Positions 3,117 through 14,108 of a stretch of DNA of 64,000 nt are shown here, one piece after another (positions within the stretch are counted from its first letter, which is position 1; the number at the start of each line of letters is the position of its first letter). The DNA lies in IMG/VR virus record IMGVR_UViG_3300043788_000114, positions 64,001 through 128,000 of that record; one strand, given 5' to 3'. Source of the DNA: a virus. Below the pieces are notes generated by a model, which saw only the letters and a program-made list of their open reading frames with translations, made no database searches and was not told the origin of the DNA. The position numbers and the translations under genes are program-made.

Positions 3117-3397
3117 TTCGCTGCCGGTCTCGCGATCACGGCATGGAGCGTCACTTCGTCATCGGTAAAAGAATAGAGCACGGTCAAATCCGGCTTATGC
3201 CACGCATGATCCCCGCTTTGCGAATACACCCAAAACCGTCCCTTGAAGTGAGTGCCTTTCTCTGGCTTATGCGCTAGCGTCCATTCCAGCGAACGGTAGG
3301 CCATCTCCCCGCGCGCAAATTCTCTTGTCGCACGGTCCATATCGACAGAAAATTCTCTGTCTTGGACCACCTGTCGCAATTTAGGATTCGTTTCCAA
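3113..3397 (-). CDS. putative RelE/ParE-fold toxin
   Basis: 94 aa, coupled to Panacea gene; C-terminal LTVLYSFTDDEVTL strands. Confidence 0.55.
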   Translation of the reverse strand: METNPKLRQVVQDREFSVDMDRATREFARGEMAYRSLEWTLAHKPEKGTHFKGRFWVYSQSGDHAWHKPDLTVLYSFTDDEVTLHAVIARPAAK

Positions 3398-3917
3398 AGC
3401 GCGAACTTATCACAGAATCGGCCCACGCGCGATCTTCATCTGTGATAGCTCGTGGTGTTGCCATGATAGCAAAGAGAGGAATTGTTTCACCCATTTCAGC
3501 TAGTTTCCACCACTCAGCGTGGGTCGCATCGCTGATAGATGCGGCTGTGTGAGAGCATACCGTGTCAGTCATTTTGTTAATAAACTCCAGATCGTCAGAA
3601 GTGAACAGACTTAGATCTGGCTCTGTTTTAGTTATGTATTCCGTCCGGAAGTAATTGACCACCCTTACGGTTCGAATTTCCAGCGCCCCCTCTTCCACTA
3701 ATTCCTCTAGGAGTGGGAGCATCGCGGCCACAACAGGACCATTCTTTTCCTTAATAAAGCGCGCGCCTGTCAACGCGTGCCCGTTCGTCTTCACGTAGTG
3801 ATTTGTCTCGACGTACCAAATCACCTTGTTAAGTTTCACTGCCCCCAGACGCGCAGGATTCTCCCGGCAACGTGAACACACGTAGTGCACGAGTCTTTTC
3901 AGTTTTGTCCTGTTCAT
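3381..3917 (-). CDS. Panacea (DUF4065/SocA-like) antitoxin
   Basis: KLNKVIWY, TGARFIKEKNGPV, ISDATH..W motifs. Confidence 0.85.
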   Translation of the reverse strand: MNRTKLKRLVHYVCSRCRENPARLGAVKLNKVIWYVETNHYVKTNGHALTGARFIKEKNGPVVAAMLPLLEELVEEGALEIRTVRVVNYFRTEYITKTEPDLSLFTSDDLEFINKMTDTVCSHTAASISDATHAEWWKLAEMGETIPLFAIMATPRAITDEDRAWADSVISSRFGNES

Positions 3918-4220
3918 CTCTTTGCCGCCCTTCCGCGTCCTAGCGAACGTGGCTCCATAAAGGGGGTTTCCCAAGTTGTGCCACGTTTGCTGGACGTGAC
4001 TACAACACGTTTTGCTTGCAGGTCAATTTAGCAGCAGATTTCCACACTTGCACGCAAAAATCAGCTAGCTGCTAATTTGACGCGTCGAGTGGGGAAATAG
4101 CTTCGCCGTTCGTTCGCCCACATGGTTCGCTTTTGGGCCGGGGAAACCTGTCCTCAATTCGACTCCTCTTTTATAATACCCTTTTAAGGGGGATTTCAAG
4201 GGTTATTTCAAGGGGGGTTT

Positions 4221-4493
4221 ATGGGGGATGAACCAGAGAATAAAGGAGGGCGACCGGGAGCCGGGCCTCGTTACCCGGTAGAGATTAGAACCATGGACGC
4301 TGTCACGTCCCGAATGCTAGACACACTTGTTACGTACGGTCGGTTCGGTGACTCAAGATCACAGGTGGCTCTTTTCATCATTCGAAAGTGGCTGTTTGAG
4401 AACGAGGACCGTTTACAGAAAGCAATCGCGGCTAGGAAATTTCCCCTCGGAGACATCGATTCCGACTTTGAACCGCCGACAAATCAGAGTTAG
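4221..4493 (+). CDS. putative ribbon-helix-helix regulator
   Basis: MLDTLVTYGRFGDSRSQVALFIIRKW. Confidence 0.55.
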   Translation: MGDEPENKGGRPGAGPRYPVEIRTMDAVTSRMLDTLVTYGRFGDSRSQVALFIIRKWLFENEDRLQKAIAARKFPLGDIDSDFEPPTNQS

Positions 4494-4557
4494 GAGACGG
4501 CCCATGAGCACCGGAGGCTCTGGGTTAGTCACAGTATTTATTGCCAAAAAATACGGC

Positions 4558-4586
4558 TTGACATTCTGCGCCGCCCGATGTACCGT
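4558..4586 (+). promoter_or_regulatory. promoter of tRNA array 1
   Basis: TTGACA-17bp-TACCGT. Confidence 0.7.
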
Positions 4587-4596
4587 CAAAAACGTG

Positions 4597-4680
4597 ATGA
4601 CTCGATTCCATAGCGACTTCCCAGCAACAGCGGCCACGCAGCCGCAAGGTAATCGCTCGCCTGAAATGGGGTCTCAATAG
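4597..4680 (+). CDS. leader peptide of tRNA array 1 (MTRFHSDFPATAATQPQGNRSPEMGSQ)
   Basis: GTG/ATG at predicted TSS; has codons for all 12 array-1 tRNAs; its 3' end is complementary to the terminator arm. Confidence 0.75.
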   Translation: MTRFHSDFPATAATQPQGNRSPEMGSQ

Positions 4681-4713
4681 GATTTTTCATCGCAATGGAG
4701 CGAAGAAAACTAC

Positions 4714-4753
4714 GAGGCCCCGGACACCGAAAGGTTTTCGGGGCTTCTGCTTT
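4714..4753 (+). terminator. attenuator terminator of array 1
   Basis: GAGGCCCCGGA...TTCGGGGCTTC-TGCTTT with inner ACC-GAAA-GGT hairpin; weak U-tract. Confidence 0.65.
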
Positions 4754-4808
4754 GTGCGGATGAATAAAGGCGATAGCTTGAGTGGTATTTTGATGTTAAA
4801 CTCTGTGC

Positions 4809-5420
4809 ATGGCTGCAATCGATATGGCTGTGTATATGGCAGAGCGCCGGAAGAATCGGCGCGATAAACTGATTGCGATGTCGGGCGGGAGATGCATCAA
4901 GTGTAATTCAACCGACGATCTCAATTTTGACCACAAAGACCCGAAGGATCGCTCATTCCGATTGACTGGTAAGGCGCTGGATGGTTCGTGGGAAAAGATT
5001 CTTAAAGAGTGGCGAAAATGCCAGTTGCTTTGTAGGGTTTGTCACCTTCGGAAGACAAAAGAAAATGACGAGTACGGCGAACCGCCGAACAAGGGCGTTT
5101 CGAAATGGGGAGAAGTTCTTCCTGAGCACGGATGTGAAGCGGCTTACGCGCATGGTTGCAGATGCGATGAATGCTGTAAAGCGAGATACGAAGCGCGAGT
5201 TCGTCGCGGCGAATTGAAAGGTATCCGTGGACCACGAGGAGCAAATAATCCGAAGGGCGTCATCAAACACGGAACGCGCTCCGGATACCAAGCGGAGTTG
5301 AGACAAGGTTTAACTGCTTGCGATGAATGCAGAAAAGCGAACGCGGAAGAGACGCGGCGGCGCAAGCAAAATGAAAAGTTTGTTCCGAGGGAACCAGACG
5401 GTACGGTAGCGCACTGTTAA
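4809..5420 (+). CDS. HNH endonuclease with Zn-binding C-terminal repeats
   Basis: CIKC..LNFDHKDP...CQLLCRVCH; HG...GCRCDEC. Confidence 0.85.
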   Translation: MAAIDMAVYMAERRKNRRDKLIAMSGGRCIKCNSTDDLNFDHKDPKDRSFRLTGKALDGSWEKILKEWRKCQLLCRVCHLRKTKENDEYGEPPNKGVSKWGEVLPEHGCEAAYAHGCRCDECCKARYEARVRRGELKGIRGPRGANNPKGVIKHGTRSGYQAELRQGLTACDECRKANAEETRRRKQNEKFVPREPDGTVAHC

Positions 5421-5458
5421 TGCGACAATAACAGGTTCGACTCCTGTCCTCGGAGCCA
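5384..5458 (+). tRNA. tRNA-Asn(GTT)
   Basis: Cloverleaf, loop CTGTTAA, GGTTCGA, CCA. Confidence 0.9.
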
Positions 5459-5467
5459 GTTTGAAGT

Positions 5468-5543
5468 TGGGGAGAAGTTCAACGGGTGGAACGCTCGGCT
5501 CTGACCCGAGAGGCAGCAAGTTCGAGACTTGCCTCCCCAGCCA
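5468..5543 (+). tRNA. tRNA-Gln(CTG)
   Basis: Loop CTCTGAC, CCA. Confidence 0.9.
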
Positions 5544-5558
5544 AGTTTGGAGGACCAC

Positions 5559-5730
5559 ATGAAGGATTATCGCGAAACGAAAAGGAACTACGCACGACGG
5601 ATGCGACCTCTCTGAAAGCAAGTTGGCCGGTGCATCTGTTGCGGCGCACGACCGGCTGAGCAAGATCGAGCGAAGTGTACGGTGTGTCTTTGAGCGCCAG
5701 AGACTTTATGCGAAGACACGAAAGAAATAG
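5559..5730 (+). pseudogene. decayed small Zn-finger ORF
   Basis: SD+ATG, in-frame TGA at 5613, CICC...CTVC, apparent frameshift at about 5691. Confidence 0.4.
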
Positions 5731-5801
5731 GGGAATGGCCGAGCGGCTTAGGCGAGTGTCTTTGAAGCACTTTCAGGTGGGTTCAACTCCTACTTCCCCT
5801 G
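5729..5801 (+). tRNA. tRNA-Gln(TTG)
   Basis: Loop CTTTGAA; no encoded CCA. Confidence 0.85.
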
Positions 5802-5802
5802 C

Positions 5803-5878
5803 GCGGGCGTAGTTCAATTGGCAGAACGTCGGAGTGCCACTCCGAAGGTTGCCGGATCGTTGCCGGTCGCCCGCTCCA
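5803..5878 (+). tRNA. tRNA-Gly(GCC)
   Basis: GCGGGCG acceptor, loop GTGCCAC, TCCA. Confidence 0.85.
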
Positions 5879-5969
5879 ATTTGAAAGGGTAGTTGCAATG
5901 GAACACAGGATGATTTTGATGAGCCCGGACTTGAAGGAAGTCCACAGAGTTGTAGTTGTAAGACGCAAG

Positions 5970-6044
5970 GCACCATTAGCTCAACAGGCAGAGCACGGGA
6001 TTCGTACCCCCGAGACTGGCGTTCAAGTCGTCAATGGTGCTCCA
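5970..6044 (+). tRNA. tRNA-Thr(CGT)
   Basis: Loop TTCGTAC, CCA. Confidence 0.85.
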
Positions 6045-6094
6045 CAAGATAGCGAGCCGTCAGAATAGCGACGATTCGTTATGTAAGGCCGCGA

Positions 6095-6171
6095 GGTATG
6101 GTACGGCCCGGTGATGTGAGCCGCGGCGGGGCATGGCAAGGCTTGGTATGGTCAGGTAGGGTGTGGCATGG
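6095..6171 (+). repeat. period-5 GGNNN degenerate tandem repeat
   Basis: 13 of 15 consecutive pentamers start with GG. Confidence 0.75.
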
Positions 6172-6716
6172 GCAGTTTAATGCGTAGATCGGTGCTTCAG
6201 TTGAACGCTTCACTAGAAGCGATTCGCATTATTTCTGCAAAGAGGGCTTTGACTTTGTTGACTAAGGGCAAGGCCCTCACTGAGGTTTCGACGGGGATTG
6301 AGATTTATCCCGGCGTGTTCTTGCCTAGCGTGATTAGGCTTCGGCACTACGCGAGGGTTCCGCATAAGAGGCCGATTCCTTCGAGGAAGAATATCTTTGT
6401 CCGCGATGGGAACCGTTGTCTTTACTGTGGGGCCAAGGGACCGAAGGTTACTCTTGAACTTGAGCATGTTATCCCGAGGTCAAGAGGAGGACAAGGGTCG
6501 TGGGACAACTTGGTTTCGGCGTGCCACGAGTGTAACCAGAAGAAGGGTGATCGTACACCACAGGAAGCTGGAATGACTCTGATTCATCGTCCTTTGCCAG
6601 CGACGGTACACACAAACCGTTTCGTGCTTAAGCAACTTGGGGAAGAAATTTCTGAGTGGAGTCCATTTTTGTGGCAGGACAACAAGGGCGACACTCGCTT
6701 TCAGTTTGTGCATTAG
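6168..6716 (+). CDS. HNH endonuclease (McrA-like)
   Basis: VLQLNAS, PSVIRL, RDGNRCLYCG, EHVIPRSRGG, WDNLVSACHECNQKKG. Confidence 0.92.
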   Translation: MGSLMRRSVLQLNASLEAIRIISAKRALTLLTKGKALTEVSTGIEIYPGVFLPSVIRLRHYARVPHKRPIPSRKNIFVRDGNRCLYCGAKGPKVTLELEHVIPRSRGGQGSWDNLVSACHECNQKKGDRTPQEAGMTLIHRPLPATVHTNRFVLKQLGEEISEWSPFLWQDNKGDTRFQFVH

Positions 6717-6737
6717 GATGGTGATCCTAAGTTTTGA

Positions 6738-6812
6738 GCCTCGCAAGCATTGCCGTCGATGCGCCGGTCCTGTAAATCGGTGAAGCCAGTTAGACTCTGG
6801 CGCGGGGCTCCA
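6738..6812 (+). tRNA. tRNA-Thr(TGT)
   Basis: Loop CCTGTAA (C33), CCA. Confidence 0.8.
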
Positions 6813-6822
6813 TAACTTTCAT

Positions 6823-6898
6823 GGAGCGATTGGCCGAGAGGTAAGGCACCAGATTGTGGCTCTGGTATACGTGGTTTCGAGTACCACATCGCTCCCCA
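6823..6898 (+). tRNA. tRNA-His(GTG)
   Basis: G-1:C73 pair, loop TTGTGGC, CCA. Confidence 0.9.
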
Positions 6899-6906
6899 AT
6901 TTTTAC

Positions 6907-6987
6907 GGGCCGTGGAACTGCATGGGGTGGTTGCCTCTCTTGCAAAGAGGAAATGTCAGGCGAGTTCGATTCTCGCACGGTCCACCA
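6907..6987 (+). tRNA. tRNA-Ala(TGC)
   Basis: G3:U70, loop CTTGCAA, ACCA. Confidence 0.9.
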
Positions 6988-6993
6988 ATTATT

Positions 6994-7239
6994 ATGAAGC
7001 GACCGAAGTGTACGAAAGTCGATTTCATTGTCTGCGGTCGCATCGACGATCCGAGGACGAACAATGCTCCCGGATCGGAACTCAGGAAGTGCTCTGAGTG
7101 TGAAAGTGAAGTGAGGATTCATCCGACAACTATCGACGCGAAGATCAATGTACCGATCCTGTGTTTGCAGTGCGCACTGGCCAAGATGGAGTGTTCGGAA
7201 GAGGAGATGGAAGAGCAGGGAACAAGATTGCAGGTTTGA
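6994..7239 (+). CDS. small Cys-rich hypothetical protein
   Basis: CSEC...CLQC; fills the gap between tRNAs. Confidence 0.6.
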   Translation: MKRPKCTKVDFIVCGRIDDPRTNNAPGSELRKCSECESEVRIHPTTIDAKINVPILCLQCALAKMECSEEEMEEQGTRLQV

Positions 7240-7246
7240 AGATTTC

Positions 7247-7321
7247 GGACTCGTAGCTCCAATGTAGAGCGGCACGTTGAAGCCGTGCGCGTTGCTGGTT
7301 CAAGTCCAGTCGAGTCCACCA
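7247..7321 (+). tRNA. tRNA-Phe(GAA)
   Basis: Loop TTGAAGC, ACCA. Confidence 0.9.
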
Positions 7322-7329
7322 AGTTTTAA

Positions 7330-7403
7330 CAGGGCGGAGCGCGGTCTGGCAGCGCACCAGTTTCGGGAACTGGCGGTCGGAGGTTCAAATCCTCTCGCCC
7401 TGA
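7330..7403 (+). tRNA. tRNA-Pro(CGG)
   Basis: Loop TTCGGGA; abuts next tRNA, no CCA. Confidence 0.88.
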
Positions 7404-7478
7404 CGGGGATTAGCTCAGAGGCAGAGCATTCGCTTTGGGAGCGAAGGGCCGGGATTTCGAAATTCCCATCCCCGACCA
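7404..7478 (+). tRNA. tRNA-Pro(TGG)
   Basis: Loop TTTGGGA, ACCA. Confidence 0.9.
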
Positions 7479-7490
7479 TTTTGAAGATGT

Positions 7491-7566
7491 GGGCTGTTAG
7501 TTCAACTGAAGAGAATATCGGTCTACGAAACCGAAGATGGAGGTTTGAGCCCTCCACGGCCTACCA
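7491..7566 (+). tRNA. tRNA-Arg(ACG)
   Basis: Loop CTACGAA, ACCA. Confidence 0.88.
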
Positions 7567-7587
7567 AAAATAAACTGCGCTTTTCTA

Positions 7588-7616
7588 TTGACGCGGTTTG
7601 GGAATAGCGATAACGT
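7588..7616 (+). promoter_or_regulatory. promoter of Y RNA/Ro60 unit
   Basis: TTGACG-17bp-TAACGT; predicted TSS at the first Y-like RNA. Confidence 0.6.
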
Positions 7617-7620
7617 TGAT

Positions 7621-7692
7621 TTTGTCGATGGTGAAGTTTACGGATACTTCTCTTCCAAAGAAAACCTCTGTGAGCGTTTGTTCCTCGACAAA
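7621..7692 (+). ncRNA. Y-RNA-like 1 (short)
   Basis: Terminal stem TTTGTCGA/TCGACAAA, GGTGAAG...TTGTTC, GATACTTC; upstream of Ro60. Confidence 0.7.
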
Positions 7693-7695
7693 GAT

Positions 7696-7833
7696 TTGCG
7701 GTTGGTGTAGTTTCAGTTACTTCTTAATCAGCAGGTCACGGGTTCGAGTCCCGTCAAGCAGCAATGCTTGTAGCTCAGTTGGTAGAGCAGCCGAGGCGAA
7801 AGCCAGTACCCTGAAGCGCCTGTTCCGCCGCAA
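7696..7833 (+). ncRNA. Y-RNA-like 2 (YrlA-type, permuted tRNA domain)
   Basis: GGTGTAG...CTGTTC stem; T arm, closed acceptor, then D arm TAGCTCAGTTGGTAGAGC. Confidence 0.85.
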
Positions 7834-7839
7834 TAAAGT

Positions 7840-7910
7840 TCTCCGGTAGTGAAGAGGACGGTTACTTCACTCGAAATGAAAAACAACCGTTTTCGCTTGT
7901 TCTCCGGGGA
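7840..7910 (+). ncRNA. Y-RNA-like 3 (short)
   Basis: TCTCCGG/CCGGGGA stem, AGTGAAG...TTGTTC, GTTACTTC. Confidence 0.7.
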
Positions 7911-7918
7911 TTAAGTAT

Positions 7919-8021
7919 GAGCCGTAGTGGTCGTAAGGGTTACTTCTTGGTTCGATTCCAAGGTTGGAAGCAATTCCTACCTGCCGATTGGTCGGCTACC
8001 CCTTGCAAATGTTCTCGGCTC
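7919..8021 (+). ncRNA. Y-RNA-like 4 (YrlA-type)
   Basis: GAGCCG/CGGCTC stem, GTTACTTC, T arm TTGGTTCGATTCCAA, D-like arm, TGTTC. Confidence 0.75.
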
Positions 8022-8028
8022 TCTAAGT

Positions 8029-8158
8029 TCGGGTTGGTGTAGGAAACAGTTACTTCGCCTGTGGAGCGAGTAGTTCGGGTTCGAATCCCGGCGTCTTCTT
8101 CGGAAGATGTAGTGTAATGGCAGCACGCTTACGTCACTGTTCCGTCTGTTCCGCCCGA
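8029..8158 (+). ncRNA. Y-RNA-like 5 (YrlA-type with anticodon arm)
   Basis: GGTGTAG...CTGTTC; anticodon-like arm, T arm, UUCG-capped acceptor, D arm. Confidence 0.85.
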
Positions 8159-8167
8159 TACTACTCA

Positions 8168-8203
8168 GAGAGCCTCTGCTTCGGCAGGGGCTTTTCTATT
8201 TTT
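8168..8203 (+). terminator. intrinsic terminator after Y RNAs
   Basis: AGCCTCTGC-TTCG-GCAGGGGCT-TTTCTATTTTT. Confidence 0.75.
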
Positions 8204-8220
8204 CACCGGGAGGGTGAACG

Positions 8221-9645
8221 ATGCGTACAAACGTAGCAGAAAAGAAGGCGCTCATCTACACGCACGAGGGCGCAGTGGCGGTGTTCATCAACCCCGTCGA
8301 TCAGCTTCGCCGCTCTGTCATGGCGAACATGTTATGGGAGGACGAGTTCTACGAGGATGGCCAGTCCATTGCAAAGCGGATTCAGGAAACGACCGCCGAA
8401 ATCCTCAAGCAGAAGAACGGCGCGCAGACCGTGGCGGACATTGCGTTTGAGGCCCGCACGAAGATGAAGCTGCGTCACGTCCCGTTGCTTCTATTGGTTT
8501 CGCTCATCCGTGCGAAGACCGATCAGACACGGAAGGTTGTGGCGGAAGCCATCGCGCGTGTGGTCCAGCGGCCAGACGAGATGGGTGAATTGATCTCGCT
8601 CTACTGGAAGCTGAATGACAAGCGTGCCATGTTGCCGCACCAGATGAAGATCGGCCTCGCGGCGGCGTTCCAGAAGTTCGATGCCTACTCGCTCGGAAAG
8701 TGGAACTCGGATGCGGCGGCGGTGAAGCTGCGCGACGTCCTGTTCTTGACGCACGCGAAGCCGAAGGATCAGGCACAGGCAGAACTCTGGAAGAAGTTAG
8801 CGGAGAAGACGCTGGAGTCGCCGGATACGTGGGAGGTGGCTCTCAGCGGCGGTGCTGACAAGAAGGAGGCGTTCACTCGTCTGCTCGCCGAGGAAAAGCT
8901 GGGTGCGCTGGCGCTGCTCCGAAATCTGCGGAATATGCAGCAGGCCGGTGTCGACGTTGAGGCGATCCGCAAGGGTCTCGGAACGATGAAGACAGAGCGT
9001 GTTCTTCCCTTCCGCTTCATCACGGCGGCAAAGTACGCTCCGCAGTTGGAGCCTCAGCTTGAGCAGGCCATGTTCCGGTGCCTCGCAAGTCAGGAGAAGT
9101 TGACGGGCAAGACAGTCTTGATCGTCGATTGCTCGGGATCGATGCATGGCGGAATCTCTGCCAAATCCGAACTGGACCGTCTCAGCGCGGCTGCTGCATT
9201 GGCTATGCTGGTGCGTGAGGTCTGCGAGGATGTTGCCGTGTACGCGACGGCGGGTGACGATGGTCGGCGCATCCACGCGACGATGCTGGTTCCTCCGCGT
9301 CGTGGTTTCGGTTTGCGTGATCTGCTTTCCTACGAGAGCACGAGCCGCAAGATCGGCGGAGGTGGAATCTTCTTGAAGCAGGTGATTGAGTACGTCCGCA
9401 AGGAAGAGAAGGACACGGCGGACAGGATCATCGTCATCACCGACGAACAGGACTGCGATCTGGTAAACAAGCCAGCAAGCGCCAAGCCATTCGGGAAGAA
9501 CAACTACCTTATCAACGTGGCTAGCTTCAAGAACGGCATCGGCTACGGAGAGTGGGTCCACATCGACGGCTGGAGTGAGGCGATCTTGGATTACATCCAG
9601 CAGTACGAGCGGTTGCAGGAAACCGGCAATGAGATTTCTGCCTAA
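8221..9645 (+). CDS. rsr: Ro60/TROVE RNA-binding protein
   Basis: THEGA, RPDEMGE, ALLRNLRNM, VLPFRF, vWA DCSGSM, ITDEQ; adjacent Y RNAs. Confidence 0.95.
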   Translation: MRTNVAEKKALIYTHEGAVAVFINPVDQLRRSVMANMLWEDEFYEDGQSIAKRIQETTAEILKQKNGAQTVADIAFEARTKMKLRHVPLLLLVSLIRAKTDQTRKVVAEAIARVVQRPDEMGELISLYWKLNDKRAMLPHQMKIGLAAAFQKFDAYSLGKWNSDAAAVKLRDVLFLTHAKPKDQAQAELWKKLAEKTLESPDTWEVALSGGADKKEAFTRLLAEEKLGALALLRNLRNMQQAGVDVEAIRKGLGTMKTERVLPFRFITAAKYAPQLEPQLEQAMFRCLASQEKLTGKTVLIVDCSGSMHGGISAKSELDRLSAAAALAMLVREVCEDVAVYATAGDDGRRIHATMLVPPRRGFGLRDLLSYESTSRKIGGGGIFLKQVIEYVRKEEKDTADRIIVITDEQDCDLVNKPASAKPFGKNNYLINVASFKNGIGYGEWVHIDGWSEAILDYIQQYERLQETGNEISA

Positions 9646-9665
9646 TTTCCCTTGGTACCATTTGC

Positions 9666-9917
9666 CTAAAGGGCACGGCTCAACACCGTGCCCTTTCTTT
9701 TTGCCTTCTCCAGTCGCTTGCGCGCCGCGTCGTTGCGGATCGCCAAGTTGAGCCCGCTGGTGTAGCTGAGCACGAAGGAGCCACGAGTTCCTTTGAGCCG
9801 GAAGATCATGTATCCCGGCTTGAGTTCCACGATGATCTGCCGCTGGCGTCGCCGGTCGTAGACGGTGTTCTCCGTCTCGACGATGAGTTTGGATTTACGC
9901 TGCGATAGCTTGCTCAT
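9666..9917 (-). CDS. hypothetical protein
   Basis: ORF coupled to upstream gene. Confidence 0.65.
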   Translation of the reverse strand: MSKLSQRKSKLIVETENTVYDRRRQRQIIVELKPGYMIFRLKGTRGSFVLSYTSGLNLAIRNDAARKRLEKAKRKGTVLSRAL

Positions 9918-10461
9918 CTGACACCTCCACTATTGCGATCTTCTTTGCGTAGTACCTGACCTTCGTTTCCCACTTCTTCCGGAGCGTGGTGGCACGCTTC
10001 TCGCGCGTGAGCGCCGCCTTGAGCATCCGCTGGCAGTGAGCCAGCTTGGCGTCCGGTGCAGGGCGAGTGGTCGTTACCTTCGGCCTTACCTCCAGCGGTA
10101 GCTCATTGGCCCACGCGTAGATTTGCCGGTAGCTGCCGAAGCGTCCGTACCTTGCCGAGTGACGCATCATGTACTCATCGCGCGCTCCACGCGTGTGAGC
10201 AAGTTCGTGCGCGATCACCATTGCGAAGTCCACCTTATCTGGCGTGCGCTTGGAGAGCCGCACCTTCATCCAGTTCCCTCTAATGCTGGCTTCGCCACTA
10301 GAGTACGTGCTGCCGTTTCTCCGGGTGTATACAACCTTCACATGTAGGGATGGCGCTCCGCGCTTGCATAGATCAGGACGTTCCTCCGGCATCTGCCGAG
10401 AGATGAATGCCCGGATATGATCATCGCGCCAGTGAGTTTTGTTGCTGAGTTTGATTCGCAT
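9895..10461 (-). CDS. zincin-type (HExxH) protein
   Basis: VIAHELAHTRG. Confidence 0.7.
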   Translation of the reverse strand: MRIKLSNKTHWRDDHIRAFISRQMPEERPDLCKRGAPSLHVKVVYTRRNGSTYSSGEASIRGNWMKVRLSKRTPDKVDFAMVIAHELAHTRGARDEYMMRHSARYGRFGSYRQIYAWANELPLEVRPKVTTTRPAPDAKLAHCQRMLKAALTREKRATTLRKKWETKVRYYAKKIAIVEVSDEQAIAA

Positions 10462-10611
10462 AGCCGTGTTTCCCCCTGCATCTATTTTCTCATCGACGAT
10501 TTTTGTAAACTGCGAAATCGCCTGTATTCATGCGGTCTCCGACGTGTAAGTAATTGACAGTACAGTGTCGAAATAAATCTCTTGACAAGAATTTCCCATT
10601 TTGCGGTTAGA

Positions 10612-10971
10612 ATGTTCTGGGGGAGAAAATTGCTCATCATTCTGGCGCTTGTATGGATTCACTTTGTGTCGGATTTTCTGTTGCAGTCCGACAAGATGGC
10701 GATCAATAAATCGAAGAGTTGGAAGTGGCTCGGCATCCATTGCGTAACGTACTCGACGCCGTTCCTGATCTTCGGCTGGCGCTTCGCGCTGGTCACCCTT
10801 GCTTTCCATTTCGTGACGGATGCGATCACGTCGCGTGGCACAGCGTACCTGTGGAAGCGGGAGATGCGACACTGGTTCTTCTCGCTCATCGGCTTCGATC
10901 AGGCGATCCACCTGAGCACGCTGATTTTGACCTACCATTTTTTGCTTGCAAAGAATCTGGAATGGGTGTAG
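10612..10971 (+). CDS. DUF3307 membrane protein
   Basis: HFVSDFLLQ, HFVTD, FDQAIH. Confidence 0.85.
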   Translation: MFWGRKLLIILALVWIHFVSDFLLQSDKMAINKSKSWKWLGIHCVTYSTPFLIFGWRFALVTLAFHFVTDAITSRGTAYLWKREMRHWFFSLIGFDQAIHLSTLILTYHFLLAKNLEWV

Positions 10972-10974
10972 GCT
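10946..10974 (+). promoter_or_regulatory. promoter of tRNA array 2
   Basis: TTGCAA-17bp-TAGGCT; GTG 8 nt downstream. Confidence 0.6.
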
Positions 10975-10981
10975 GATTTTC

Positions 10982-11068
10982 GTGCAGATAAGGACCAAAT
11001 CCGTGAACACGAGAATGACCGGGAAGCGGGTCATTTGGGGAATCGTGTCCGGGGGTTTGGGAACCTAA
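10982..11068 (+). CDS. leader peptide of tRNA array 2 (MQIRTKSVNTRMTGKRVIWGIVSGGLGT)
   Basis: Leaderless GTG; has codons for all 12 array-2 tRNAs; CCGGGG complementary to terminator arm. Confidence 0.75.
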   Translation: MQIRTKSVNTRMTGKRVIWGIVSGGLGT

Positions 11069-11096
11069 TCTGCAACAAGATTCGGAACTCAAAGCA

Positions 11097-11122
11097 CCCC
11101 GGCTCAGGCCGGGGATTTTTTT
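11097..11122 (+). terminator. attenuator terminator of array 2
   Basis: CCCCGGC-TCAG-GCCGGGG-ATTTTTTT. Confidence 0.85.
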
Positions 11123-11135
11123 GGTCTTTGAAAAA

Positions 11136-11210
11136 GCGGGTTTAAGCTAGTTGGCAAACTGCCTGCCTCCAAATCAGGACTCAGGGGTTCGATTCCTCTA
11201 ACCCGCGCCA
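11136..11210 (+). tRNA. tRNA-Trp(CCA)
   Basis: Loop CTCCAAA, G73, CCA. Confidence 0.82.
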
Positions 11211-11211
11211 T

Positions 11212-11287
11212 CGCGACGTAGCTCAGGTGGTGGAGCGCCGATCTCATAAGTCGGAGGGCGAGGCTTCGAGTGCCTCCGTCGCGACCA
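11212..11287 (+). tRNA. tRNA-Met(CAT), elongator type (Ile2 not excluded)
   Basis: Loop CTCATAA, paired 1:72, ACCA. Confidence 0.85.
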
Positions 11288-11293
11288 AGTTTT

Positions 11294-11388
11294 GCCGGAA
11301 TCCTCGGGCGAGGCGCTGGGATTTATAACCCCGGTTGTTGTCGGTAGATTGCCGATGTGCGAGGGATCATACCCCTCTTCCGGCCCCA
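11294..11388 (+). tRNA. tRNA with TAT anticodon (Ile) and long variable arm
   Basis: Loop TTTATAA; V-arm GTCGGTA/TGCCGAT; short D arm; CCA. Confidence 0.7.
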
Positions 11389-11390
11389 GT

Positions 11391-11467
11391 GAGCGCGTCG
11401 TATAGCGGCTGATTATACCTGCCTCTTAAGCAGGCTGACGCTGGTTCAAATCCAGCCGCGCTCACCA
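11391..11467 (+). tRNA. tRNA-Lys(CTT)
   Basis: Loop CTCTTAA, ACCA. Confidence 0.9.
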
Positions 11468-11474
11468 AAGTTTT

Positions 11475-11560
11475 GGGATCGTACTCGAATTGGATGCAGA
11501 GACCTGACTTTTAATCAGCGGGGAAACCCAATGGGGGTTCGAGTCCCCCCGGTCCCACCA
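11475..11560 (+). tRNA. tRNA-Lys(TTT) with variable arm
   Basis: Loop CTTTTAA; extra GGG-GAAA-CCC arm; ACCA. Confidence 0.85.
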
Positions 11561-11564
11561 AGTT

Positions 11565-11641
11565 GCTCCCGTATCGGCGCTGTCTTCTAAACAGCAGGCC
11601 GTAGACGGATGACGCGGGTTCGACTCCTGCCGGGAGCGCCA
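11565..11641 (+). tRNA. non-canonical tRNA-Arg(TCT), no D arm
   Basis: Intact acceptor, anticodon and T arms; CCA. Confidence 0.75.
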
Positions 11642-11647
11642 TGTTTT

Positions 11648-11725
11648 GCCGCTGTACCTCACCCGCCTCCTAAGCGGGATTCGAGTAACTGGATGATGCC
11701 GGTTCAACTCCGGCCAGCGGCACCA
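11648..11725 (+). tRNA. non-canonical tRNA-Arg(CCT), no D arm
   Basis: Same architecture; loop CTCCTAA. Confidence 0.75.
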
Positions 11726-11730
11726 GTTTT

Positions 11731-11807
11731 GCTGCCGTACCGGGTCGCCCTCCGAAGGCGAATACCGTAGATGGAGAAGGCAGGTTCGAGTCCTGTCGGC
11801 AGCGCCA
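11731..11807 (+). tRNA. non-canonical tRNA-Arg(CCG), no D arm
   Basis: Same architecture; loop CTCCGAA. Confidence 0.75.
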
Positions 11808-11811
11808 GTTT

Positions 11812-11889
11812 GCAGGGTTAACTCAGTCCGCTCAGAGTGCCTCTCCTACAAAGAGGAAGCCGCAGGTTGAAATCCTGCACCCTGCACCA
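11812..11889 (+). tRNA. tRNA-Val(TAC)
   Basis: Loop CCTACAA (C33), ACCA. Confidence 0.85.
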
Positions 11890-11894
11890 AGTTT

Positions 11895-11969
11895 GCCGGT
11901 CAAGCACATGCGGATGTGTACTCCCTTGGTAAGGGAGAGGCAGAGAGTTCGATCCTCTCGACCGGCCCA
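11895..11969 (+). tRNA. tRNA-Thr(GGT)
   Basis: Loop TTGGTAA. Confidence 0.85.
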
Positions 11970-11973
11970 GTTT

Positions 11974-12048
11974 GCCGATGTAGCTCAATGGGAGAGCATT
12001 CCCTTGATAAGGGAAAGGTCAGTGGATCGGTACCACTCATCGGCACCA
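11974..12048 (+). tRNA. tRNA-Ile(GAT)
   Basis: Loop TTGATAA, ACCA. Confidence 0.88.
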
Positions 12049-12065
12049 AGTGTAGAATTGCAGGC

Positions 12066-12392
12066 ATGGCTCAATGGGAAGTGACTATACGCGCAAACAT
12101 TCTCATCACAGACGATGATGATGACGAAAACCAGTTTGCTGAGCAGTACACTTTCATCTGGTCCGCGCCCGACTTCATTTCGGCAGTGATGTCAGTCCAG
12201 CAGAAGCTCGACACTTTGAACGAGCGCACGAAGAAGAAGTGGGAAGAGACTGCTCGCAAAGCACGATTCATGGAAGAATACAACATCGTCGGGTTGATCG
12301 AAACCGATCACGTGCTATTCGGCGACAAGTGGATAGATGAGTTCGTAGAACGAGGCGTAATAGATCGCAATTATGCCGAAGATGAAAGTTGA
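12066..12392 (+). CDS. acidic hypothetical protein
   Basis: ORF filling the gap between tRNAs. Confidence 0.65.
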   Translation: MAQWEVTIRANILITDDDDDENQFAEQYTFIWSAPDFISAVMSVQQKLDTLNERTKKKWEETARKARFMEEYNIVGLIETDHVLFGDKWIDEFVERGVIDRNYAEDES

Positions 12393-12467
12393 GCGGGTGT
12401 CGTCCAACGGTAGGGCCACAGCCTTCCAAGCTGTTGACGAGGAGTTCGAATCTCCCCACCCGCTCCA
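12393..12467 (+). tRNA. tRNA-Gly(TCC)
   Basis: Loop CTTCCAA, TCCA. Confidence 0.9.
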
Positions 12468-12538
12468 TCACTCTCCGGAATAAAATCTGGAATAATTTGT
12501 GCTCGGAATTTCGATTTCTCCCGTGCTAAACTGCGCTC

Positions 12539-13177
12539 ATGTCTCTGAGCCTTGTCCCAATGCCGCTTCCGCCGCAGCCGTCTTTCCTGAATCCCAAGCG
12601 CAAACGACTCTGGGAAAAGTACAACGGCAAATGCCACTGGTGCGGATGCGAAACGCGGTTGGTGAATGACACAGCGCCGGATAAGGCAACCATCGATCAC
12701 ATCATCCCGCGCTACAAAGGCGGCACAAACGATCCCGCAAATCTGGTAAATTCCTGCAATCTTTGCAACAACCGGCGAAACTACGAAGATCATTTCGGAC
12801 TTGCCGAAGGCACCTTGTTAGGGAAGTACAAGGGAGGCCAGAGCAACACGGAACGCAGGGCGGCGCGGCGCGCGCAACTGAAGCACATCGCTCTAACCGG
12901 TGACGAAAAACGGGCGATCCTCGAAAGACTCGACGCTGGGAAGACACAACCACAACCACAGCCGCAAGCACCGATTCAGACGCGTCCGCCAGCGGCCCGC
13001 TACAGCACGGAGGAGGTCCTTCGCGAGCAGCGCGATCAGGCGCAGAAACGCATCGTCGAATTGCAGAAGGAATTGGATCGAGTGCAGGCCATCGCGGCGA
13101 CGCAGGAAAAAGAATTGAAGTCGATCACTGTGGTGGGGCTTATCCGGAAGCGGATCGCCGAGTGGCTTTTGTCTTGA
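12539..13177 (+). CDS. HNH endonuclease with coiled-coil tail
   Basis: CHWCG, TIDHIIPRYKGG, NLVNSCNLCNNRR. Confidence 0.9.
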   Translation: MSLSLVPMPLPPQPSFLNPKRKRLWEKYNGKCHWCGCETRLVNDTAPDKATIDHIIPRYKGGTNDPANLVNSCNLCNNRRNYEDHFGLAEGTLLGKYKGGQSNTERRAARRAQLKHIALTGDEKRAILERLDAGKTQPQPQPQAPIQTRPPAARYSTEEVLREQRDQAQKRIVELQKELDRVQAIAATQEKELKSITVVGLIRKRIAEWLLS

Positions 13178-13919
13178 CACGCTGCTAGAAATGCCATACA
13201 ACCATGAGAGCGCGGTTTCCGCCGATCCCGCGCGGGGTGCGAGCACTCCCAAAAGGCTCAGCCCTCCCCCTTGCAGCGGCCTGTCGTTTTCTTCCGGTTG
13301 AGACGGGCCGTTGCTTCCTCACTTCTCCTTGTAAATAATGGATTCCTTCATCACGCTGCCGCCGTGAAACGACGGTACGATTTCAGAGAGGCGCACCGAA
13401 AGCGGCGATCTCATCGCCAGTTCAATCTGCGCTTGGCGGATCGTCGCGAGCATTCTTCTTCGCGTCCTGCGCGCGGCAGGGAATTGCGCGTGCGTACACA
13501 CCCACTCGCACCGAAAGTTGCACCAGTCGCCTCTGCTTTTCATCGAGCGTCACGGCATCGAACAGGACCCACTTTAGCTTATCGACGGCGGTCATGAATT
13601 CTCCTTCAGCAACTCTTGGTTCCTCCGCTTCGCCGCCCGCTTGAGCCTGTAGCGCGCGTTGGCGCACTTGCGGCACTCCTTGATGATCAGGCCCCCGCGA
13701 CGATGCTCGATCACGTTGGTCCCCATCTTCAGGTGGCCTTGGCGGCAGCGGTCGGATGGTTTGGGCGGCATGGAATTACGCTACCCCGAGTATGGAATTA
13801 CGTCAAGACGCGGCGATTCCTCGCCGCCGCTCGCCAGCGATGATCGAGTGGTGCTGAGTCGTGCTGAGAGTTTCCAGAGGCGGTACGTGGAGTGGTGCAG
13901 GTGGCGGGACTGGCGTAGC

Positions 13920-14108
13920 TTAGGCCGCTGCGGTCTCGTAGTCAAACTTCGAGCGGGCCATGAATCCTTCATCGAGAATCAGGGTGTTCAGGCGGTGCTT
14001 TGTATTGCGCGCGAGTTCCGGAAGATCGGGCCAGTGAACCTCGGCCTTTTCGCCACTGATCCCGACCACAACTCCCGGCTCCCCGGCGACAGCATTTGCC
14101 AGATACAC
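13920..14108 (-). CDS. hypothetical protein
   Basis: Protein-like ORF ending ETAAA. Confidence 0.5.
   Translation of the reverse strand: MYLANAVAGEPGVVVGISGEKAEVHWPDLPELARNTKHRLNTLILDEGFMARSKFDYETAAA

Follow-up and report, generated by a model that had tools for sequence, protein, structure and literature searches.

Leader-peptide attenuators that sample more than one amino acid are well established in amino acid biosynthesis: the thr leader contains Thr and Ile codons, the ilvGMEDA leader contains Ile, Leu and Val codons, and trpL, hisL, leuL and pheL are further leaders of this kind. Phage transfer RNA (tRNA) genes have long been seen as codon-usage supplements, and lately as replacements for tRNAs lost to immune nucleases. 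How a phage times the expression of its tRNAs has, to our knowledge, hardly been addressed so far. Here we describe a 64,000-nucleotide stretch of viral DNA, hereafter the window, which comprises bases 64001-128000 of one 138,516-base virus contig (IMG/VR record IMGVR_UViG_3300043788_000114). The window contains two arrays of tRNA genes, each preceded by a short open reading frame (ORF), or leader, that is rich in codons read by the tRNAs of that array, and a third such unit lies upstream of the window in the same genome. These units are probably ribosome-mediated leader-peptide attenuators, each gating a block of phage tRNAs.

The trn operon of Anabaena sp. PCC 7120 is described as a long tRNA array that is normally silent and is induced when translation is impaired, under the control of a repressor, TrcR, that acts on direct repeats over the -10 box and the start site (PMC8421152, PMC10272220). 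Neither paper mentions attenuation or leader peptides. Phage tRNAs have been proposed or shown to stand in for host tRNAs that anticodon nucleases, retron effectors or PARIS destroy (PMC10264068, PMC11555353, PMC11464382), and attenuation and leader peptides go unmentioned in PMC10264068 and PMC11555353. A literature search, which did not extend to supplementary files, found no published account of leader-peptide attenuators before tRNA genes.

Among the long ORFs of the window are matches to phage families of helicase, primase/helicase, topoisomerase, methyltransferase and HNH proteins. In a whole-genome ARAGORN run, all tRNA genes and a permuted transfer-messenger RNA (tmRNA) fell within genome positions 60625-76467; the genome total is 36 tRNAs with 36 distinct anticodons, and all 20 amino acids are covered. 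Array 1 (5384-7566, plus strand) and array 2 (11136-12467, plus strand) each contain 12 tRNAs. The resulting 24 anticodons, obtained from ARAGORN, Rfam models and folding, are all distinct and none is common to both arrays, just as had been claimed from the sequence alone in the original prediction. The broader claim, that the arrays partition the genetic code, holds in the sense that no anticodon is shared; the partition itself is unsurprising, because any split of a non-redundant, near-complete tRNA set is a partition. ARAGORN also bore out that Leu, Ser, Tyr, Cys, Asp and Glu tRNAs are absent from the window, from which a third array elsewhere, with a leader rich in codons for these six amino acids, had been predicted. 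Such an array was found for four of them. Array 0 (genome 60625-61506, 2.5-3.4 kb before the window start) contains nine tRNAs, namely Leu TAA, Cys, Leu TAG, Leu CAA, Ser GCT, GGA, CGA and TGA, and Tyr, and is preceded by a leader and a terminator; the Asp and Glu part of the prediction did not hold for this leader.

What links each leader to its own array? Leader 0 (L001 4492-4560) starts with GTG, contains 21 codons and lies directly upstream of the first Leu tRNA; five Leu, nine Ser, one Cys and one Tyr account for 16 of its 21 residues. Leader 1 (4597-4680, plus strand) consists of ATG followed by 26 sense codons and a TAG stop. A 58-codon version of leader 1 beginning at 4504 was rejected, its extension being not conserved in relatives and containing the promoter-like site. 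Leader 2 (10982-11068, plus strand) has a GTG start, 27 sense codons and a TAA stop, and its homologues in four related loci (L002, L003, L004 and L031) begin at the position equivalent to 10982. Codons were assigned to tRNAs under assumed wobble rules, in which G34 reads C and U, C34 reads G, A34 reads U, C and A, and U34 reads A and G and, in family boxes, also U. With this assignment, array 0 reads 14/21 codons of leader 0, array 1 reads 18/26 codons of leader 1 (the other two arrays read 3 and 3), and array 2 reads 18/27 codons of leader 2, or 19/27 when ATA is assigned to Ile TAT (the others read 3 and 4); the shorter version of leader 2 gives 12/16. The leader-by-array matrix is thus diagonal, with 14/21, 18/26 and 19/27 own-array codons versus 1-4 for any other array.

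When the best upstream ORF was compared with random 250-nucleotide (nt) windows of the genome (20,000 draws each), the match of units 0, 1 and 2 gave P = 4.5e-4, 5.5e-3 and 8e-4, which are upper bounds because the null windows include the loci themselves. Every tRNA of each array has at least one cognate codon in its own leader (9/9, 12/12 and 12/12), and equal-length stop-free random windows reach this full coverage with P = 1.0e-3, 1.7e-3 and 1.2e-4. The leaders also largely avoid each other's codons, as originally noted: leader 1 has 2/26 codons of the other array (P = 0.024) and leader 2 has 4/27 (P = 0.006). In particular, leader 1 lacks Lys, Ile, Trp and Val codons, and leader 2 lacks Pro, His, Phe and Ala codons from each of its three in-frame starts. 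The match extends to synonymous choice. The tRNAs for Arg, Thr and Gly are divided between array 1 and array 2, and of the 18 leader codons for these amino acids, 15 are those of the own array, when 8.0 are expected from the synonymous codon usage of the phage (P = 6.5e-4); over six genomes, the same test gave 49/62 versus 29 expected, a value that 0/20,000 simulations reached. The non-cognate codons are concentrated in the last six positions of the leaders, where the cognate fraction is 0.41 versus 0.60 in the core (P = 5e-4, 19 units).

Related loci were collected with a TROVE protein query, which yielded 25 viral-contig loci and the best 80 of 379 metagenome loci. Of these, 21 hold at least four tRNAs, and 17 were examined; L018, L022 and L097 were left out because the array starts at the contig end, or lies on the other strand at the contig end. 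Homologous leaders at the same position, with hairpins after them, were found in 10/17 loci (L002, L003, L004, L029, L031, L054, L080, L086, L032 and L015), those of leader 1 occurring in L002, L003, L004, L029, L031, L054 and L080. L033 and L086, nearly identical to L032 and L080, were left out of the counts, as were the class-1 leaders of L054 and L080, the arrays of which are cut by contig ends, and a 95-nt call (Val aac) that was later read as Ile TAT; the L015 units were kept apart. In the resulting 19 leader-array units from nine loci, the own array ranked top in 18 and was tied in one. In total, 254/459 leader codons are cognate to the own array, versus 129.7 +/- 20 under random pairing (0/20,000). 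The original prediction had expected leader codons to co-evolve with array content, and this was supported by a stricter shuffle among homologous units only, which gave 238.1 +/- 4.2 and reached the observed 254 in 0/20,000 draws.

Individual loci illustrate this tracking. In L031, two Glu tRNAs lie inside array 2, and its leader 2 is the sole one with a Glu codon. In L032, the array-1 set is joined by Trp, Cys, Asp and Glu tRNAs, and codons for all four amino acids occur in its leader. The other array of this locus gained an Asn tRNA and no longer contains Trp; in its leader, an Asn codon is present and Trp codons are absent. Asp codons occur in leader 0 only where tRNA-Asp directly follows Tyr (L004, L031, L054 and L080), and a Glu codon only in L004, where Glu tRNAs follow too. 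Isoacceptor pairs are kept as well: AAA and AAG occur together in 5/6 class-2 leaders, CAA and CAG in 6/7 class-1 leaders, and AGA and CGG in 6/6 class-2 leaders; ATA is found in 6/6 class-2 leaders, including those of loci without a called Ile-TAT gene. Two exceptions to the tracking were observed: Thr codons of leader 2 do not track Thr GGT, and two leader-2 homologues have Asn codons without an Asn tRNA behind them.

Each array of the window forms a separate module with a promoter-like site, a leader ORF, a terminator hairpin and tRNAs, in agreement with the original prediction; the words inducible and rescue, which it applied to these modules, are inferences from sequence. The promoter-like sites have a TTGACA-like -35 element, a 17-nt spacer and a weak -10 element that ends 6-7 nt before the start codon, and this promoter-leader arrangement is conserved in L003 and L004, which suggests that the leader messenger RNAs (mRNAs) may be leaderless or near-leaderless. 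The promoter-like site P1 (4558-4586, plus strand) has TTGACA at 4558-4563 and a weak -10 at 4581-4586, with the start of leader 1 located 7-10 nt further on, and its -35, spacing and -10 hexamer are identical before leader 1 of L003. P2 (10946-10974, plus strand) has TTGCAA at 10946-10951 and, after a spacer of 17 nt, a -10 at 10969-10974; the GTG of leader 2 at 10982 lies 7 nt downstream of this -10, the hexamer of which is identical before leader 2 of L004. The leaders are situated 65-130 nt before the array or an inserted HNH gene. A hairpin lies between leader and genes in all three units, and has the form of a consensus-type intrinsic terminator after leaders 0 and 2. T0 (L001 4590-4611), after leader 0, is a 9-base-pair (bp) hairpin with a T-run. 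T2 (11097-11122, plus strand) is a predicted intrinsic terminator with a 7-bp all-G:C stem and a 4-nt loop (hairpin 11097-11114) followed by a run of seven T, and ends 13 nt before tRNA-Trp. T1 (4714-4756, plus strand) is terminator-like, with a hairpin at 4714-4747 of predicted free energy (dG) -23.9 kcal/mol and a U-poor tail.

A second, upstream hairpin, the candidate antiterminator, begins in the last leader codons next to or around the stop, and shares bases of its 3' arm with the terminator's 5' arm. The candidate antiterminator A1 (4668-4721, plus strand) has its 5' arm at 4668-4675, over the last sense codons of leader 1, and its 3' arm at 4714-4721, overlapping the 5' arm of T1. A2 (11049-11103, plus strand) holds the last six codons and the stop of leader 2, and its 3'-terminal bases (11097-11103) coincide with the 5' arm of T2. 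In 17 units, a distance of 23-35 nt separates the stop codon from the terminator's 5' arm downstream. Folds were computed in silico for the nascent RNA just before the 3' arm of the terminator is made, with the ribosome placed either mid-leader or at the stop. With a mid-leader ribosome, the 5' arm of the terminator was largely paired upstream in the 17 units (dG -19 to -31 kcal/mol). This upstream structure was lost when the ribosome was placed at the stop (dG 0 to -5.6 kcal/mol). For A1, 12/15 terminator-arm bases were paired upstream in the former state (dG -26.9) and 4/15 in the latter (dG -4.3); for A2, the values were 7/7 (dG -25.4) and 4/7 (dG -2.1). Compared with shuffled upstream sequence, the antiterminators of 9/17 units pass at 5% or less, rows L002_L2 and L004_L0 being unreliable in this control since the strongest-hairpin rule picked the wrong helix, and in each of the three units of this genome a fraction of 0.01 of the shuffles was as stable. 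The A2 helix also covaries over five relatives, with 81.8% of cells paired versus 31-49% when the partners are slid, and with five pairs changed on both sides.

Each unit consists, in order, of a promoter-like site, a leader ORF 21-27 codons long, a predicted antiterminator hairpin, an overlapping terminator-like hairpin and the tRNAs. This anatomy, the codon match, its conservation and its co-variation with array content are what the sequences show; translation of the leader, termination at the hairpin, read-through driven by stalling and tRNA loss as the trigger are all inferred from sequence. The leader would act as a sampler, in which every tRNA of its own array has one codon or more and codons of the other arrays are few. 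When decoding is fast, the ribosome would trail RNA polymerase to the stop codon and melt the 5' arm of the antiterminator, so that the terminator forms and the array stays off. When any of the sampled aminoacyl-tRNAs is scarce, the ribosome would stall in the leader core, the antiterminator would keep hold of the 5' arm of the terminator, and transcription would enter the array. The newly made tRNAs would then relieve the stall, closing a negative feedback loop. The three modules would divide most of the code among them: module 0 would cover Leu, Ser, Cys and Tyr; module 1 Asn, Gln, Gly, Thr, His, Ala, Phe, Pro and Arg (CGN); and module 2 Trp, Met, Ile, Lys, Arg (AGR, CGG), Val, Thr (ACC) and Gly (GGR).

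The likeliest use of such a switch, at one further step of interpretation, would be the replacement of host tRNAs lost in infection, whether through tRNA-cleaving defences, host shut-off or codon-usage mismatch. In a more specific form, the units would sense tRNA damage and replace what was lost: loss of any single host tRNA, for example through anticodon-nuclease cleavage, would stall the ribosome and switch on the matching array only. This form is put forward tentatively, as a real possibility that falls short of being probable. If it is true, phages would sense tRNA-targeting immunity in real time rather than express decoy tRNAs blindly, and the arrays, the phage tmRNA and a Ro60/Y-RNA-like module would together make up a translation-repair island. 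The same attenuator could instead take amino acid starvation or a general slowing of translation as its signal and serve as a physiological or timing gauge. All of the structural evidence applies equally to this alternative, and leader attenuators, in the textbook account, sense charged tRNA and are blind to whether the tRNA or the amino acid is missing. We nevertheless consider starvation sensing unlikely: an extra tRNA would be no help if the amino acid is missing, and both the codon match at the level of isoacceptors and the presence of one codon per tRNA fit the sensing of tRNA species better.

Several observations weigh against attenuation itself, and some of them speak for two other explanations. 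It could be that translation of the leader shields the transcript from Rho or nucleases or directs its processing, the hairpins being ordinary terminators or processing sites. T1 and its homologues in L003 and L029 lack good U-tails, T1 was not called by the consensus terminator scan and its termination efficiency is uncertain, and the first leader of L015 has no terminator behind it. In addition, equilibrium folds of the whole leader RNA keep the terminator in most states and show no clean switch, so that the switch rests on a kinetic, co-transcriptional assumption, as with the classic attenuators. Against protection or processing stand the overlap of antiterminator and terminator, the position of the stop at the 5' arm of the antiterminator with near-constant spacing in 17 units, the covariation of A2 and the concentration of non-cognate codons in the structural tail; this explanation is judged quite improbable. 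Alternatively, the short ORFs could be fortuitous or code for small peptides, the match having arisen by chance or ancestry and the arrays being constitutive. Short ORFs are common, the leaders of the relatives were picked by eye from position and homology, and the relatives share ancestry (L031, L054 and L080 are close), so that P values across relatives overstate independence. The within-genome tests, with P from 1e-4 to 5e-3 per array, the synonymous choice, which matches the own array as a peptide function would not require, and the shift of leader content when tRNAs move between arrays make an incidental origin very improbable, and it is already disfavoured.

The remaining points against attenuation concern expression and generality. 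Leader 1 has no Shine-Dalgarno sequence and its translation as a leaderless mRNA is assumed; leaders 0 and 2 both begin with GTG, and leader 2 has three in-frame starts (GTG 10982, GTG 11003 and ATG 11015). The -10 elements are weak, that of P1 matching 3/6 bases, and the sites were not called by the consensus promoter scan, which in the case of P2 called a neighbouring weaker match at 10927-10956 instead. Each leader contains 7-8 non-cognate codons under the assumed wobble rules, and leader 0 contains no Asp and no Glu codon. The expectation that every array has a matching leader failed: a block of tmRNA, Asp and Glu genes has a plain promoter with no leader seen, and no leader was found in 7/17 related loci (L010, L039, L069, L064, L035, L036 and L007). 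Overall, the interpretation given in the original prediction is partly supported, its limits being the leaderless Asp/Glu block and the doubtful terminator of leader 1.

The window yields 19 tRNA genes with default ARAGORN settings, 18 of which lie inside the two arrays, and six more were recovered via Rfam, relaxed ARAGORN or folding. The 19th call, a 70-nt tRNA-like element (His gtg, 8032-8101) beside a YrlA-like RNA, was left uncounted. Array 1 begins with Asn GTT (5384-5455), Gln CTG (5468-5543), Gln TTG (5729-5802), Gly GCC (5803-5878) and Thr CGT (5970-6044), is interrupted by an HNH gene (6168-6716), and continues with Thr TGT (6738-6812), His GTG (6824-6898), Ala TGC (6907-6987), Phe GAA (7247-7321), Pro CGG (7330-7404), Pro TGG (7404-7478) and Arg ACG (7491-7566); Asn GTT was recovered with the Rfam tRNA model (46.3 bits) and Thr TGT with relaxed ARAGORN. 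Array 2 comprises Trp CCA (11136-11210), Met CAT (11212-11287), Ile TAT (~11294-11388), Lys CTT (11391-11467), Lys TTT (11475-11560), Arg TCT (11565-11638), Arg CCT (11648-11722), Arg CCG (11730-11804), Val TAC (11812-11889), Thr GGT (11895-11968), Ile GAT (11974-12048) and Gly TCC (12393-12467), with an ORF of unknown function between the last two. Ile TAT has a cloverleaf fold with a long, class-II-like variable arm and aligns with Ile-TAT of L031; on the strength of this fold and alignment, the 95-nt Val aac call of relaxed ARAGORN was re-read as Ile TAT. Arg TCT and Arg CCT score 33.7 and 40.3 bits, respectively, with Rfam, and Arg CCG is the weakest call, with 24.6 bits to the tRNA-Sec model, which is under the threshold of that model. 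In all three Arg tRNAs (11565-11804), about 4 nt stand in the place of the D-arm, and the anticodon arm is followed by a D-loop-like insert of 15 nt. Their counterparts in L002 have the normal order and score 60-65 bits, versus 25-40 bits here.

Past array 0, the gene order is an HNH gene, a Met-like tRNA, the tmRNA, Asp, Glu CTC and Glu TTC, reaching genome position 63917. A promoter matching 11/12 consensus positions (L001 6331-6359) lies directly before the Met-like tRNA; it is situated within the HNH gene (L001 5562-6404) and seems to drive the tmRNA/Asp/Glu block. The Met-like tRNA (L001 6365-6442) has a two-base anticodon according to ARAGORN and scores 34.5 bits with the Rfam tRNA model, and relatives have Met-CAT at this place. 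The tmRNA (L001 6787-7263, genome 62787-63263) is of the circularly permuted, two-piece type, scores 75.2 bits with the Rfam model tmRNA_permuted, has a tag peptide called by ARAGORN, and sits between array 0 and the Asp/Glu tRNAs. Short ORFs at L001 7233-7388, 7409-7648 and 7495-7602 were considered as a separate Asp/Glu leader and rejected, as they overlap tRNA-Asp or have no terminator.

Several protein-coding genes lie among the tRNA units. An HNH endonuclease gene (4809-5420, plus strand; Pfam HNH E = 0.0046, below the curated cut-off) is situated between attenuator 1 and the first tRNA, and its last 37 nt overlap tRNA-Asn; in L003, L004 and L029 no HNH gene is found at this place, and 59-90 nt separate the leader from tRNA-Asn. 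Together with those at 6168-6716, 12539-13177 and L001 5562-6404, it is one of four HNH genes across the tRNA region, the positions of which vary among relatives. A SocA/Panacea antitoxin-domain protein (3381-3974, minus strand; Pfam E = 8.9e-13) is encoded just upstream of attenuator 1. Between arrays 1 and 2 lies the gene of a TROVE/Ro60-like protein with a vWA domain (8221-9645; Pfam TROVE E = 1.5e-11), preceded by a YrlA-like RNA match (7731-7791; 46.5 bits, under the threshold of 69) and by the 70-nt tRNA-like element; the three resemble a Ro/Y-RNA module of the phage. In this genome only, the interval 9666-10971 between the TROVE gene and leader 2 is occupied by two minus-strand ORFs and the gene of a DUF3307 membrane protein (10582-10971), and in L002 and L004 leader 2 directly follows the TROVE gene. 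Near and distant DNA searches of a phage collection found no relatives of the array region, only similarity in the TROVE gene and in single tRNAs, and no tRNA array was found around the TROVE gene of Caulobacter phage CcrColossus. The distant arrays of L069 (11400-11657) and L039 (2400-2652) show no leader; short motifs recur ahead of their first tRNA and may represent another type of promoter or control.

How do these units compare with known systems of control? No match at E <= 1 was found in window positions 3500-14000 and L001 either to the Rfam leader families (His, Leu, Thr, Trp and similar) or to the T-box. If the proposed mechanism is correct, a leader with one codon per tRNA would gauge the tRNA pool, with the product feeding directly back on it, and the logic of attenuation would extend from the supply of amino acids to that of tRNAs. 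Which array responds to which tRNA loss follows as a prediction from the idea, and each sensor takes up about 150 nt, potentially a compact, programmable and codon-specific translation sensor for synthetic biology.

The Anabaena trn operon resembles the phage arrays in being an extra, horizontally spread tRNA array, but it resides on a bacterial megaplasmid and has a single control and no codon-partitioned modules. The papers on counter-defence tRNAs treat the function of the tRNAs, whereas the phage leaders described here would concern the sensing and gating of their expression. Phage tRNAs of the counter-defence type often have altered anticodon loops. The T-box likewise senses tRNA status and controls transcription through a competing terminator and antiterminator. 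However, it binds uncharged tRNA via a specifier codon without translation and controls synthetase or amino acid genes, whereas the putative phage sensor is a translated ORF. The closest likeness is to the attenuators of amino acid operons, which share the short leader rich in regulatory codons, an intrinsic terminator of the kind predicted after leaders 0 and 2, and the overlapping antiterminator predicted to depend on ribosome position. Unlike in those operons, the genes regulated here would be tRNA genes and not those of biosynthetic enzymes; the phage leader would sample 9-12 tRNAs with about one codon each instead of containing runs of codons for one to three amino acids; and the product of the phage unit, a tRNA, would feed straight back on the sensor.

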